NCBI GenBank assembly: GCA_012338575.1
Contig: GCA_012338575.1_3616.1
Reading direction: 5' to 3' (one strand)
DNA from: a phage
Length of the DNA stretch: 64,000 bases
Under the pieces are notes generated by a model, which worked only from the letters and a program-made list of their open reading frames with translations, searched no databases and was not told where the DNA came from. Each line of letters starts with the position of its first letter. The first letter of the stretch is position 1. A program made the translations under genes and the position numbers. Shown one piece after another: positions 52,243 through 57,456 of the stretch.

Positions 52243-52286
52243 TAACTGTCCGTGATACGGACACTAACTGTCCGTGATACGGACAC
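52243..52286. repeat. perfect tandem duplication of 22-bp unit TAACTGTCCGTGATACGGACAC (each with palindrome GTCCGT-gat-ACGGAC)
   Basis: Two identical adjacent copies; followed by AT-rich GTAC-repeat region 52320-52410. Confidence 0.8.
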
Positions 52287-52429
52287 ATAAAGAATATAAC
52301 TAAAATAACTAAATAATAAAAAATAAAAGATCTAGTACTTATGGTACTAAGTACATATACTTAACTTATGTAGAATATACTAGATCCTAAGTACCATGTT
52401 TTAAAATTATTACTTACTATAGGTAGTGT

Positions 52430-52700
52430 CGGCCCTTCATTGGCACTCGCCTACGAGGGGCGAGATGCCGGGCCTCCTTGGTGCACACAATAACAGAAGT
52501 GCATACATGCAGGTCTGTTAACATGTGTGGGAGCGAAGCGATAGCGCAGGCCAAAGGCCGAGCACTGATGTGGACCACCGACGAAAGCTTGCCAGCTCCG
52601 TAAGGAGTCGGTTGAGAGTCTCCCGCGCGAGCTTGGATGAAGTTTATGTGTGGAAACTGACAAGAAGGCCCCTAAATCGCTCCACAGCTATATGAACTAT
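52430..52700. other. GC-rich hairpin-dense non-coding region (candidate structured RNA)
   Basis: No plausible ORF; long hairpin GGCCC..GGCA-CTCGCC-tacgagg-GGCGAG-a-TGCC-GGGCC and several palindromes in otherwise AT-rich DNA. Confidence 0.35.
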
Positions 52701-52789
52701 ACCAGGTAATGCAATCGCACCAGTTTGATAGAAAAGCTCGTTACAAAGTGATACAGTGAGTTTTTCTATAACTTGAAGAGGAGGCAGCT

Positions 52790-53368
52790 ATGGGTTCACG
52801 CAAAGATGACCGTGAAAAGATTGCAAAACGTTATCAGAATGAAGAACAGATGGAGAAAACTTTCAAGTGGAAGCCTGGTTTCCAGCGTAATCATTCTAAC
52901 GCTCGTGATCGTAAGCATCCGGATAAGTGGCTAACACCGCCAAATGATGGCATGCAGGTTGGTGATGAGAAGGAGATGTCACCTGGAAAAGATGGCAACT
53001 ACATTCGCACTAAGGAAGCTGGTCCAAAGGATGACAGCTATCTTGTAGATAAGGTTCTTAATGGTATTGATGTAGATGTTGACACTGCACGAAACCTTTT
53101 TCTTGGTTGGTATCGTACAGGGTTTTTCGACATCAAGGCTATTCGTCGTGTTTGCGATATTAAAAAGTCTGCCTATGATGATGACTCCCTACATCGCACT
53201 CTGAGACAATACTCAGAGAGATACGGTCATCCAGTTATCACTCTTGACGATATTAACGAAGTGATGTATCATGCAGAGGTTGTTGCAGGTAGATTCGGTG
53301 ATGCATATCTAGATATCCTTTCTGCAAAGGATGAGGTAATGTTAAATAAGATTTACTATGAACGCTGA
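52790..53368 (+). CDS. hypothetical protein (192 aa)
   Basis: Strong SD GAAGAGGAGG. Confidence 0.6.
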   Translation: MGSRKDDREKIAKRYQNEEQMEKTFKWKPGFQRNHSNARDRKHPDKWLTPPNDGMQVGDEKEMSPGKDGNYIRTKEAGPKDDSYLVDKVLNGIDVDVDTARNLFLGWYRTGFFDIKAIRRVCDIKKSAYDDDSLHRTLRQYSERYGHPVITLDDINEVMYHAEVVAGRFGDAYLDILSAKDEVMLNKIYYER

Positions 53369-53567
53369 GGGGTGCTTAATGAACAATCCGGTAGCAAAGA
53401 ACTGTACTAAGTTTAATAAGTCTGCGATTCACACTGACAGGAAAAAGGGCTGGTCTCCTGACATTGACGAGGAGCTTGAGAGTTACTTTGAAGACCTGGT
53501 CACTAATGCAGATGAGGTTGCGATTAAAGAATACGCAGACAGGAAGGATAAGGCCGGAATCTGTTGA
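53358..53567 (+). CDS. hypothetical protein (69 aa)
   Basis: ORF overlapping upstream stop. Confidence 0.4.
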   Translation: MNAEGCLMNNPVAKNCTKFNKSAIHTDRKKGWSPDIDEELESYFEDLVTNADEVAIKEYADRKDKAGIC

Positions 53568-53643
53568 CAAAAATAGTGTTACCTGATAAGATCTGCAATA
53601 TGATGTGATGCAATTTTAACTTACGAGGTCTACAGGTAATGCT

Positions 53644-53886
53644 ATGTTTAAGGTTAAGCTCGTTTTTCGTTCCATGAATGAGGATTATTTAGAAGATGAA
53701 GGTGAATTTCGTGCACTGGATGATGCAATAGATTTTGCCAACGACTTAGCTTGTATGAATACAGGTTATGGGCTATGTTGTTGGGATGGTGGTGTTCAGA
53801 TCGGTGATAGCAAGATCTTCTACTTCTACCCTGAGCCTGATAACAAACAAATTAAGTATGTTTTATTTATTTGTGCTTTACAATGA
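53644..53886 (+). CDS. hypothetical protein (80 aa)
   Basis: ORF. Confidence 0.45.
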   Translation: MFKVKLVFRSMNEDYLEDEGEFRALDDAIDFANDLACMNTGYGLCCWDGGVQIGDSKIFYFYPEPDNKQIKYVLFICALQ

Positions 53887-54176
53887 GGTTGTTTTCGTGT
53901 ATCATGATGAATATCCAATTTAAAGATGAATTTGATGGCTTTATCTCCGGATGCTTTGAAACAGGGTTCGGAGAAGACTGAGTTCCCTTAGAGGGCTTGA
54001 TAGTGCACCACACTTAAAATGGTAGGGGCAGCCAGCACATGACGATGTGACCCCAGCCAACCTGTAATAAGGTCGAGCCTGAGCGCGGTAATGGGTATAG
54101 CTGGAAAACCCACTTGTTGGGTCTTGCTGGTCCAGGACGCTGGACAAGTCGCAGGGAATACCACCCTGCGGCGAAC

Positions 54177-54205
54177 TTGACAATCAGTATTTGCTATGAT
54201 AAAAT
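54177..54205 (+). promoter_or_regulatory. sigma70-like promoter (TTGACA, 17 bp, TAAAAT)
   Basis: TTGACA 54177-54182, TAAAAT 54200-54205. Confidence 0.5.
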
Positions 54206-54233
54206 CCACCTATCACGTGATAATGGAGGAAAC

Positions 54234-54572
54234 ATGGCGGATACAACTAAAAAGCGTCGCCGTAGAGGCAGACCTCTGAAAGAGGAGTCCAACGCCATTC
54301 AGCTAGAGAAGAACATCCTTGATATGAAGGAATCTTTTATAGCGATGGTTCCAGAAGCTCACAAAGTTTTAAGAGAGCTGATGTTGGACCCGAAAACCAA
54401 ACAAAATATTCGTCAAAGCATTGCAGAGTATGTTCTTGATAAGGCAGACCGAATGCAGGAAGAATATGATGAGATGTTTGGTGAAGAGGAAGAGGTGGTA
54501 GTAGAAGAGGCTGAAAAACCAGCACCTTTTATGCCATTTACCACAGAAATACAGCCTGTTGGCAATAGTTAA
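54234..54572 (+). CDS. hypothetical protein with basic N-terminus and acidic C-terminus (112 aa); possible DNA-binding/small terminase-like
   Basis: ATG 54234 after GGAGG; KKRRRRGRPLKEE N-terminus. Confidence 0.45.
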   Translation: MADTTKKRRRRGRPLKEESNAIQLEKNILDMKESFIAMVPEAHKVLRELMLDPKTKQNIRQSIAEYVLDKADRMQEEYDEMFGEEEEVVVEEAEKPAPFMPFTTEIQPVGNS

Positions 54573-54668: not shown

Positions 54669-54743
54669 GCCCTGTTAGCTTAGTGGATAAAGCAGCGGCC
54701 TTCTAAGCCGTTGACACTGGTTCGAGTCCAGTACGGGGTGCCA
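54669..54743 (+). tRNA. tRNA-Arg (anticodon TCT)
   Basis: Manually folded cloverleaf: acceptor GCCCTGT/ACGGGGT, D-arm GCTT-AGTGGATA-AAGC, anticodon loop CTTCTAA, T-arm ACTGG-TTCGAGT-CCAGT, CCA encoded. Confidence 0.8.
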
Positions 54744-54873
54744 AGTTCTTTTTAATGTAGCTTACTTTAGCAGAGTAAATCTTCGGCAAGTGGCGGTAAC
54801 CACTTTACCGATACCTCATAGTTAGTGGTGAGAACACTAGCTATTTTAAAAAGAATTTAAATATTAGTATTTA

Positions 54874-54961
54874 GGTGAGTTAATTCCGTAGGGGTAGCGG
54901 GGCAGACTGTAAATCTGTTATCATTGCGATTCGGGTGGTTCGACTCCATCACTCACCACCA
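54874..54961 (+). tRNA. tRNA-Tyr (anticodon GTA), long variable arm
   Basis: Acceptor GGTGAGT/ACTCACC, anticodon loop CTGTAAA, T-loop GGTTCGACTCC, CCA encoded; 85 nt plus CCA. Confidence 0.8.
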
Positions 54962-55264: not shown

Positions 55265-55361
55265 GCTAGGTAAGCCCTTTGGCAAGGGCGAGGATTTTTA
55301 ATCCTGAAAATAGACGAGGTAGTCGTTGAATACATAGGTGGTTCGATTCCATCACCTAGCA
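55265..55361 (+). other. aberrant tRNA-like element (canonical acceptor, D- and T-arms; anticodon region replaced/expanded)
   Basis: Acceptor GCTAGGT/ACCTAGC, D-arm GCCC-TTTGGCAA-GGGC, T-arm GGTGG-TTCGATT-CCATC, but middle is AGGATT-TTT-AATCCT hairpin plus about 30 extra nt; no encoded CCA. Confidence 0.4.
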
Positions 55362-55368
55362 CCTTTTT

Positions 55369-56712: not shown

Positions 56713-57137
56713 TGTCTAAGATTTACGGACCGTGTTCTGAAAAGCAGAAGATGATCCTCGAAAACGATGCAGATATTTTGGTAATCGGCGGTGCCGCAGG
56801 GTCTGGCAAGTCGTTCCTTTTGCAGTTGATGCCGCTTAAAATTATTGATGACCCCCACAGCTCTGTGGTTATGTTCCGAAGAACAACTCCACAGTTGGAG
56901 GGTGAGGGTGGACTATGGCCTAAAGCAGTAGCTATTTATAGTGATCTGCCTGAAAACATTAAGCCAAAGTTCAGAGAGAAGGATCATAAGTTCATTTTTC
57001 CACGGTTTGATCCTAACACTGGTAAGTGGGATAGAAGCAAAAAGGGAGCTGTTGTAAAATACTGCCACATGGAGTATGTACAAGATAAGCTTAACCATCA
57101 AGGGCTTGAGTACACCATGGTTTGCTTCGATGAGGGT
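56712..57137 (+). CDS. terminase large subunit, exon 1 (ATPase Walker A/B)
   Basis: Walker A GGAAGSGKS, Walker B MVCFDEG; reading frame hits stop at 57138-57140 inside intron. Confidence 0.75.
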
Positions 57138-57456
57138 TAATTTGTAGCTCTCGTAAAACCTCCCTAATTGCGGGGAAATCTTTATTATTGACACCACCAA
57201 CCTGTTATGGTAACATGATAGAGGCTTCGAAGAGAGATCGAAGGTATGGTAACAGTGTGTTAATTTAGATAATCCGCAGCGAAGCATCCGAGGGGATGAA
57301 CGTTCAACGACTAGTCGAAAGACGTAGAATCAAGCGATTCGAAACGGGAGGGTAAGCGGTTGTTGTCGCTTATAAGATATAGTCTGGTCTGCATGGAGAC
57401 ATGCAGCTGCCTGAAAATGGCGGGGCAAGACTAGCGACCTTGCCCGAACATAAACG
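57138..57456 (+). mobile_element. group I intron (ORF-less, td-like) interrupting terminase large subunit gene
   Basis: 319 nt without ORF; begins TAATTTG after exon T, ends ...GAACATAAACG; contains AGTCTGGTCTGCATGGAGACATGCAGCTG, AACGACTA, CGAAACG strings recalled from T4 td intron; splicing 57137/57457 is in frame. Confidence 0.75.

Follow-up and report, generated by a model that had tools for sequence, protein, structure and literature searches.

A conserved structured RNA motif, usually beside tRNA genes, in rV5-like, T4-like and other phages of Enterobacterales and Vibrio

The tRNA islands of phages are now regarded as loci of counter-defence and host takeover. The GOLLD and ROOL RNAs are encoded by phages, often beside such islands, and are structured, with pseudoknots, and have no known protein partner or function (PMC12286853). 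Theta ribozymes, which belong to the HDV-like class of ribozymes (HDV, hepatitis delta virus) and were described from gut phages, sit at the 3' ends of tRNAs, and ribozymes of this class need a C as the first base of J4/2 (PMC10879173). Phage T4 additionally encodes species 1 and species 2 (rnaC and rnaD), small stable RNAs found in tRNA-like slots of its tRNA operon. Here we describe an RNA motif from a 64,000-nucleotide stretch of phage DNA (NCBI GenBank assembly GCA_012338575.1, contig GCA_012338575.1_3616.1; the whole stretch is called the window below), in which it occupies the centre of a GC-rich island. The window phage is a Vequintavirus (rV5-like) with 99.6% identity to Escherichia phage vB_EcoM_HdK5 in the island region. 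The first-pass annotation had placed this island upstream of a tRNA cluster, and the motif indeed stands about 570 nt before that cluster, which opens with tRNA-Arg(UCU). From the comparisons set out below, we propose that it represents a phage-specific RNA family outside Rfam, a new one among the structured phage RNAs linked to tRNA islands.

Positions 54025-54104 hold one copy of the motif, with a core at 54056-96 of the form CCAACCUGUAAUAAGGUCGAGCC-NNNGN-GCGGUAAUGGGU. The 41-mer CCAACCTGTAATAAGGTCGAGCCTGAGCGCGGTAATGGGTA has a single occurrence in the window when up to 3 mismatches are allowed (0 expected by chance) and one in T4, which lies between denV and vs.8 and has 2 mismatches. R1, a covariance model built on the core, finds one real copy in the window, scoring 62.6 bits (E=2e-19) at 54056-54096, and the next match there reaches 13.5 bits. 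With the island as a blastn query, 680 phage records were matched; about 560 were T4-like and covered only 54053-54097, at 87-98% identity, while the whole island was present at 95% identity or more in 119 records, nearly all from rV5-like coliphages. For the core alone, identity is about 85-98% in roughly 500 T4-like genomes. Loci, designated here by L numbers, were found by degenerate pattern scans of IMG/VR and metagenomes, by blastn of phage records and by R1, and about 65 of them score 43-68 bits, compared with at most 28 bits for chance pattern matches. The carriers comprise T4-like phages of three sequence types, T4 itself included; the 119 rV5-like records together with a divergent relative, L030; Klebsiella phage Pylas, which is N4-like, with its relatives; no fewer than 35 records of Vibrio phages; a 360-kb phage; and several unclassified contigs, metagenomic phage contigs among the carriers, two of the loci (L031 and L057) having no megablast match among phage records. 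Their hosts range over Enterobacterales and Vibrio, and the core is single-copy per genome in nearly all carriers.

Searches beyond phages returned no genuine copies. The motif was absent by blastn from all complete E. coli genomes, and a pattern scan that covered 185,579 species genomes of bacteria and archaea yielded 4 matches, all due to chance and all without the Pb hairpin and P4 helix described below. An Rfam scan, which had been suggested at the outset, matched nothing at the motif, a result that does not in itself refute the RNA reading. The 4227 models of Rfam 15, at gathering thresholds, detected only tRNAs and a group I intron in the window; positions 52300-54300 searched at E values up to 10 gave chance matches only (20 bits at most), and seven other motif-bearing loci, T4 among them, gave nothing at the motif. 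The papers searched gave no description of the core sequence, of the element before vs.8 or of such a tRNA-cluster RNA, and an unnamed entry in large computational catalogues of viral RNA structures (PMC10690425) is possible. Two short resemblances were discarded: that of GCGGUAAU (8 nt) to the 530 loop of 16S rRNA is of a size expected by chance, and that of GAGUUCCC (53980-87) to the E. coli type I-E CRISPR repeat is absent from L030.

In the fold that we predict, helix P1 encloses one strand of a pseudoknot together with an optional hairpin and abuts helix P4, and the 3' tail completes the pseudoknot through a short linker. P4 is predicted to close a three-way junction made of two hairpins, Pa and Pb, and an invariant GGUAA. 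On the plus strand of the window, P1 pairs GGGG (54025-28) with CCCC (54051-54), as assigned by hand parse, pair counts and within-lineage compensation; the pseudoknot pairs CCAGC (54032-36) with GCUGG (54100-04), on the basis of the hand parse, cross-lineage pairing and a shuffle control; and the optional hairpin P2, ACAU-GACG-AUGU (54037-48), was placed by hand parse. P4, which pairs GCC (54056-58) with GGU (54094-96), and Pa, ACCU-GUAAUA-AGGU (54060-73), were both predicted by RNAalifold. Pb was placed by hand parse as GCC-UGA-G(C)GC (54077-86; general form GCC-NNN-G(N)GC), and the junction GGUAAUG (54087-93) is part of the invariant core at 54056-96.

Thirty-four sequences were parsed by hand, each parse being checked against the real sequence, since an automated greedy helix finder had mis-assigned P1 and P4. 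Pair counts use 33 of these; because MAFFT re-gapped the N-padded alignment, they were taken from an alignment condensed to the segments that pair. Among the 33 representatives, 99.4% of cells pair and 11 of the 16 pairs have changed on both sides; the covariation score is 0.72, as against 0.16 for shuffled alignments and 0.08-0.15 when the 3' partners are slid. From 19 sequences aligned with plain MAFFT, without guidance, RNAalifold predicts P4 (with CG, AU and GC pairs), Pa and a variant of Pb, and the Pb register chosen here is favoured because its middle pair covaries perfectly, being C-G in 25 sequences and U-A in 8. The helices flanking the core have unrelated sequences in different lineages, with pairing kept at the same places; the pseudoknot positions, for example, pair as GUGAGGG/CCCUUAC, AAACCA/UGGUUU, GGGUA/UACCC, GGGAG/CUCCC, ACAAGAA/UUCUUGU and CUCCGG/CCGGAG.

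The strongest support for the fold comes from compensatory change within lineages, because there the flanking conserved sequence fixes the alignment. P1 varies as AAAGG/CCUUU, AAAGC/GCUUU and AAAGA/UCUUU in type B T4-likes, as GGGAA/UUCCC and GGGAG/CUCCC in T4 and L018, and as GAGUG/CACUC and GAAUG/CAUUC in the N4-like group. The pseudoknot changes in the same way in the Vibrio-phage group (GGGUA/UACCC, GGGAG/CUCCC and ACAAGAA/UUCUUGU), as do Pa (ACCU/AGGU, GCCU/AGGC and ACCA/UGGU) and Pb (GCC..GGC and GUC..GAC), and G-U pairs occur on the motif strand only. The conserved core and the compensatory changes in five helices strongly support a structured RNA. Nearly every base of the core, about 40 nt, is constant in families that share almost no genes, and the combination of a constant core with helices that are free in sequence and yet paired is the signature of a catalytic RNA or of one that binds a ligand or a protein. 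Since the flanking helices have diverged fully around this constant core, long-term selection is indicated rather than recent transfer.

Outside the T4-likes the motif lies on the tRNA strand, 3-730 nt from tRNA genes, in about 20 lineages. It precedes tRNA genes by 130-520 nt in L030, L026, L029, L036, L040 and L051, follows them by 3-730 nt in Pylas, L031, L045, L050, L057, L066 and L071, and stands between tRNAs in L048, L052, L054, L056, L068 and L074. The strand of the motif always agrees with that of the neighbouring tRNAs. In Vibrio phage 1.012.O (L066 1807-2153), a tRNA-Tyr, the motif and a bidirectional terminator make up an RNA-only unit, which runs on the strand opposite to all neighbouring structural genes and converges with them, no gene following on the unit's own strand. 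ARAGORN places this tRNA-Tyr on the strand opposite to that in the record's own annotation. Intrinsic terminators follow the core after 27-90 nt in L031, L057, L058 and L059. In Pylas, the motif falls within a 1-kb stretch that is free of open reading frames (ORFs) and comes after the tRNAs.

That stretch of Pylas is unannotated, and in it two long hairpin cassettes flank the motif (L028 10416-10735, about 66.8-67.2 kb of the genome). The cassettes have conserved stems, CACAACAG-RUAA-GRGCAUUG ... CAGUGCYMUU-CGUUGUGG, with variable inserts, one of which carries a tRNA-like T-arm.

No protein neighbour is shared across the phage families, and the genes downstream of the motif outside the T4-likes are unrelated to each other. 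In the T4-likes the motif precedes vs.8, which encodes a P-loop protein, in essentially all loci, with an extra gene in between in one locus, two tandem copies of the motif in L034 and L037, and, on the 3' side, a further conserved module whose end is 10-25 nt ahead of the ribosome-binding site. Homologues of vs.8 were found only in T4-likes and were absent from the other motif-carrying phages; the ORFs flanking the motif in the window fall only in families without an assigned function. The annotated start of T4 vs.8 (NC_000866 64253-64912; L003 1754-2413, minus strand) lies upstream of the motif. Relatives start vs.8 at MRTFLTG, 120 nt downstream of the annotated T4 start and behind a good ribosome-binding site. 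The true start of vs.8 is thus likely to be this MRTFLTG, downstream of the motif; the annotated start would be over-extended, and the first 40 or so annotated codons would therefore be the RNA element. A leader peptide or N-terminal extension of vs.8 (MD..CA.EWP), seemingly conserved in some T4-likes, was considered and rejected, being out of frame or interrupted by stops in L010 and L014.

The limits of the RNA in the window can be drawn from composition and from comparison with relatives. GC content is 0.49-0.53 over about 53925-54224, against 0.34-0.43 in the flanks; of the interval first described as a GC-rich island starting at 53890, the first 90 nt or so (53890-53981) are AT-rich. This AT-rich part overlaps a promoter-like site and a 25-codon ORF, and for these reasons we place the start of the RNA proper near 53985. 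The promoter-like site, TTTACA-17-TATCAT (53877-53905, plus strand), matches 10 of 12 consensus positions in a consensus scan and overlaps the 80-aa ORF upstream at its end and the small ORF at its beginning; a transcript from it could begin near 53912 and traverse the island. In L030, a stronger site, TTGACA-17-TATACT (11/12, with TG), lies immediately 5' of the RNA. The small ORF (53904-53981, plus strand; MMNIQFKDEFDGFISGCFETGFGED) contains a KDEFDGF motif and has a weak match to phrog_6828 (E=4e-4), and KDEFDGF recurs in an 8-codon ORF of L030 that has a good ribosome-binding site. It may be a real micro-protein, which would qualify the initial statement that the island has no credible ORF, and it is probably separate from the RNA. 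The remainder, 53985-54176, is non-coding and hairpin-rich and ends at a near-consensus promoter. As had been noted, this 3' limit is a TTGACA-17-TAAAAT promoter (54177-54205, plus strand), with 11 of 12 consensus positions and an extended TG; it serves a downstream gene (54234-54572) and the tRNA cluster, which starts at 54669. The folding energy of the island is modestly unusual (z = -2.2 on the plus strand and -1.4 on the minus strand), and we judge the island to be more than a product of chance because of the comparison with other phages, not because of thermodynamics.

Around the motif, the Vequintavirinae have extensions of their own, all on the plus strand. On the 5' side is a block (53985-54024) composed of a hairpin, CCC-UUAGA-GGG, followed by CUUGAUAGUGCACCACACUUAAAAUGGUA; it was found by blastn only in the 119 Vequintavirus records, and it is nearly invariant in the window, HdK5, L016 and L030 while the adjoining helices of the motif have changed. 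GGCUUGA in this block (53993-53999) can form 7 bp with UCGAGCC in the core (54073-54079), as happens in the minimum-free-energy fold. This pairing would exclude Pb and is a possible alternative conformation; both segments being invariant, it is beyond the reach of covariation. On the 3' side, three hairpins follow: CCCA-CUUGU-UGGG (54109-21), GUCCAG-GACG-CUGGAC (54130-45) and CGCAGGG-AAUACCA-CCCUGCG (54150-70). The first two are kept in L030 with other sequences (CCC..GGG and GCUGG..CCAGC), and the third is absent there. The second and third are the two hairpins named in the first-pass annotation; both exist, and the sequences given for them have to be read on the plus strand (54130-54145 and 54150-54170).

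Across its carriers, then, comparison shows a conserved, strand-specific RNA module, pseudoknotted in its predicted fold, that is specific to phages and usually lies within tRNA or early transcription units. As to function, we consider a stable early RNA acting in trans, as a decoy or sponge for a host factor or a small ligand, to have about an even chance of being correct. Such an RNA would be made early from sigma-70-type promoters and co-transcribed with small early genes and the tRNA cluster. Its invariant junction would serve as a recognition surface, for binding or for catalysis, and would bind something common to gammaproteobacterial hosts, be it a protein, a tRNA or other RNA of translation, a factor of the defence against phages or some small ligand. 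In this way the RNA would act as a stable decoy or sponge and not as the switch of one particular gene; in T4-likes, the same module placed before vs.8 could possibly also act in cis. A trans-acting decoy is favoured because several copies appear as stand-alone RNA genes with unrelated downstream genes or none, and the 1.012.O unit, the terminators, the promoter in L030, the ORF-less stretch in Pylas and the unrelated downstream genes all support a stand-alone RNA. The target is most likely to be a host component or a small molecule, because the carriers share no proteins but do share gammaproteobacterial hosts; the lack of a common protein neighbour, the absence of the motif from bacterial genomes and the spread of hosts over Enterobacterales and Vibrio all point in that direction.

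Several observations weigh against a stand-alone RNA of this fold and function. Several hundred T4-likes have the element 60-70 nt before vs.8 with neither promoter nor terminator between them, an arrangement that resembles a cis-acting leader, and behind the copy in the window stands a separate promoter but no terminator, so that only processing would give the RNA a discrete 3' end. We set the registers of P1 and the pseudoknot by hand. An unguided best-helix test against shuffled flanks gives the pseudoknot moderate support, with significance only on combining lineages (15 of them; Fisher p=7e-4), and does not reach significance for P1 (p=0.06). Moreover, P1 and P4 compete for the same bases in several lineages, which could mean alternative folds or a switch.

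One alternative is a riboswitch-like leader, in which the junction would bind a metabolite or a protein and folding would control read-through or translation downstream, of vs.8 in the T4-likes and of early genes and tRNAs elsewhere. As in a riboswitch aptamer, the fold of the element is conserved, its helices covary and the bases of its junction do not vary; a pseudoknot combined with a three-way junction of constant sequence is typical aptamer anatomy. The position directly upstream of vs.8-type genes in the T4-likes, with the extra 3' module and the tandem copies, speaks for a leader, as do the order of motif, intrinsic terminator, ribosome-binding site and ORF in L031 and the overlap of P1 with P4 in some lineages, which would permit alternative folds. 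Weighed against these are the unrelated downstream genes outside the T4-likes, the empty strand beyond the motif in 1.012.O and the separate promoter between motif and next gene not only in the window but also in L030 (687-715) and L059 (9203-9231); sequence inspection revealed no terminator/anti-terminator pairing that overlaps the aptamer helices, and no Rfam riboswitch model matches. On balance we regard the leader as a tentative alternative, and whether the element is a small RNA or a leader, both of which had been raised for the island initially, may vary with the phage family. More doubtful, and unlikely in our view, is a role in the processing of tRNA operons, as a self-cleaving ribozyme of a new kind or as a structure cut by RNase P or RNase E. 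In both cases the element would fix its own 5' end and, for the tRNA or mRNA upstream, the 3' end. All 34 parsed sequences have the nested double-pseudoknot helix order of HDV-like ribozymes (P1a, pseudoknot a, hairpin, P1b, P4, pseudoknot b), a likeness of topology only. P1 begins 3-4 nt after the CCA of tRNA-Met in L071 and 5 nt after that of tRNA-Ser in L057, the usual spacing between adjacent tRNA genes, and in the 360-kb phage the motif comes about 25 nt after tRNA-Glu. Yet most copies are 100-700 nt from a tRNA, and those of T4 about 6 kb away. The position equivalent to the first of J4/2, next to P4 on its 3' side, has no conserved C; the base there is A in the window and T4, U in type B T4-likes and the L048 group, G in L058 and L059, and absent in L028 and L026. 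P1 does not open with a conserved G either, the counterpart of the P3/L3 hairpin varies or is lacking, and no Rfam ribozyme family matches.

Readings in which the RNA plays no part fare worse. A DNA-level element, whether a site of homing or recombination, a signal for replication or packaging, or a small mobile insertion passed on by horizontal transfer, would account for a core that is about 90% identical in unrelated phage families and for its presence in plastic regions, where homing endonucleases and introns are found as well. We nevertheless consider it improbable: the compensatory changes, G-U pairs included, preserve the helices on one strand only, the motif always has the same strand as the tRNAs and genes next to it, the core has stayed constant between flanking helices that diverged fully, and no terminal repeats or target duplications were seen. 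A decayed protein gene, another of the initial proposals, or a compositional GC-rich spacer with chance hairpins is the least probable explanation of all and can be set aside for practical purposes. In its favour are a folding energy only about 2 SD below shuffled sequences and two antisense ORFs of 73-80 codons (53941-54183 and 53988-54209, both minus strand). These ORFs had been described from the start as looking compositional. Searches against PHROG found nothing significant, with no match for the former and a best E of 0.27 for the latter, and indels of 1, 5, 8 and 14 nt break both frames in L030. The comparison with related phages that had been recommended found no relative with a protein gene at the island position; pairing and core are conserved instead, the core across families at 43-68 bits with covariation in five helices. 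The block conserved between T4 and type B T4-likes is read in different frames, the variable core positions are non-synonymous and the indels of the motif region are not multiples of three. We reject a decayed gene because no relative has the gene, because conservation is of nucleotides and base pairs, because the frames differ and because of these indel lengths.

Other features of the region deserve mention. A first GC-rich island (52420-52700), about 300 nt long with no credible ORF and no Rfam match, has blastn matches of 88-99% identity in the 119 Vequintavirus records alone. It is possibly another structured RNA in this stretch of RNA genes. On its 5' side (52243-52400) are two copies of a tandem hairpin repeat, TAACTGTCCGTGATACGGACAC, and an AT-rich palindrome. 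Within the tRNA cluster, the window differs from HdK5 by an insertion of about 127 nt (54744-54873) between tRNA-Arg(UCU) and the next tRNA. The latter (54874-54958) scores 39 bits with the Rfam tRNA model, has no ARAGORN call, corresponds to tRNA-Tyr in HdK5 and shows compensatory differences in its acceptor stem. At 55265-55363, ARAGORN calls a 99-nt 'tRNA-???' with a four-base anticodon (atcc), which scores 35.5 bits with the Rfam tRNA model and is annotated in the same way in HdK5; we take it to be an unusual or interrupted tRNA. Downstream of the cluster is a group I intron (57128-57406; RF00028, 83.6 bits, E=9e-20), and L031 also has a group I intron (54 bits).

The motif has been overlooked in T4, where it lies inside what appears to be a mis-annotated vs.8 start, and it also occurs in therapy and typing phages. 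A bolder reading, which at present is unlikely though worth stating, is that lytic phages of Gammaproteobacteria, T4 included, use a new functional class of RNA against the host. As a decoy, it could be an abundant early aptamer that sequesters a defence factor, a tRNA-targeting factor or an immune signalling nucleotide; as a new ribozyme, it could combine an HDV-like topology with a different active site and mature phage tRNA transcripts. Either form, if true, would mean a previously unrecognised RNA-based function encoded in the best-studied phage. Should the function be merely the stabilisation or processing of RNA, the result would still be a useful annotation, of an RNA gene and of a corrected vs.8 start. 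Whether there is an RNA partner in tRNA islands is a question that can be tested in tractable phages such as T4 and rV5.

In comparison with known RNAs, none of which is homologous to the motif, GOLLD and ROOL are the closest by context, together with T4 species 1 and 2. GOLLD and ROOL are about 500-800 nt or longer and form multimeric cages, whereas the motif measures 70-110 nt, or about 190 nt with the Vequintavirus extensions. They are RNAs of phages and prophages, in contrast to the motif, whose carriers are virulent phages of Gammaproteobacteria and which did not turn up in the bacterial genomes scanned, and no GOLLD or ROOL model matches it. Unlike theta ribozymes, the motif has its conserved bases in what corresponds to P4, a part that HDV-like ribozymes can do without; a few copies start 3-5 nt after a tRNA 3' end, but most are not adjacent to one. 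Riboswitch aptamers built from a three-way junction and a pseudoknot are similar in size and likewise have an invariant junction and paired helices that vary, and the T4-like copies stand in a 5' leader as they would. They differ in that the motif has no common class of downstream gene, no evident expression platform and no match to an aptamer model, and in that some of its copies stand alone. The put RNA of phage HK022 acts in cis in antitermination and consists of two stem-loops without a pseudoknot. Like other such RNAs, it would resemble the motif as an early phage RNA upstream of terminators and long untranslated RNA genes that works through a conserved host machine; the motif differs in occurring also behind the last tRNA, at the ends of operons, and in phages of the N4-like group, which transcribe with polymerases of their own. 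With rnaC and rnaD there is no similarity of sequence or structure, R1 finding nothing above 8.4 bits in the T4 tRNA region; these RNAs end in tRNA-like 3' parts, which the motif lacks, and the T4 copy of the motif is placed far from them, before vs.8. The likeness is one of position among small stable RNAs of phage tRNA operons: rnaC and rnaD come directly after tRNA-Arg(UCU) in T4, and the motif in the window stands just upstream of a cluster that opens with tRNA-Arg(UCU).

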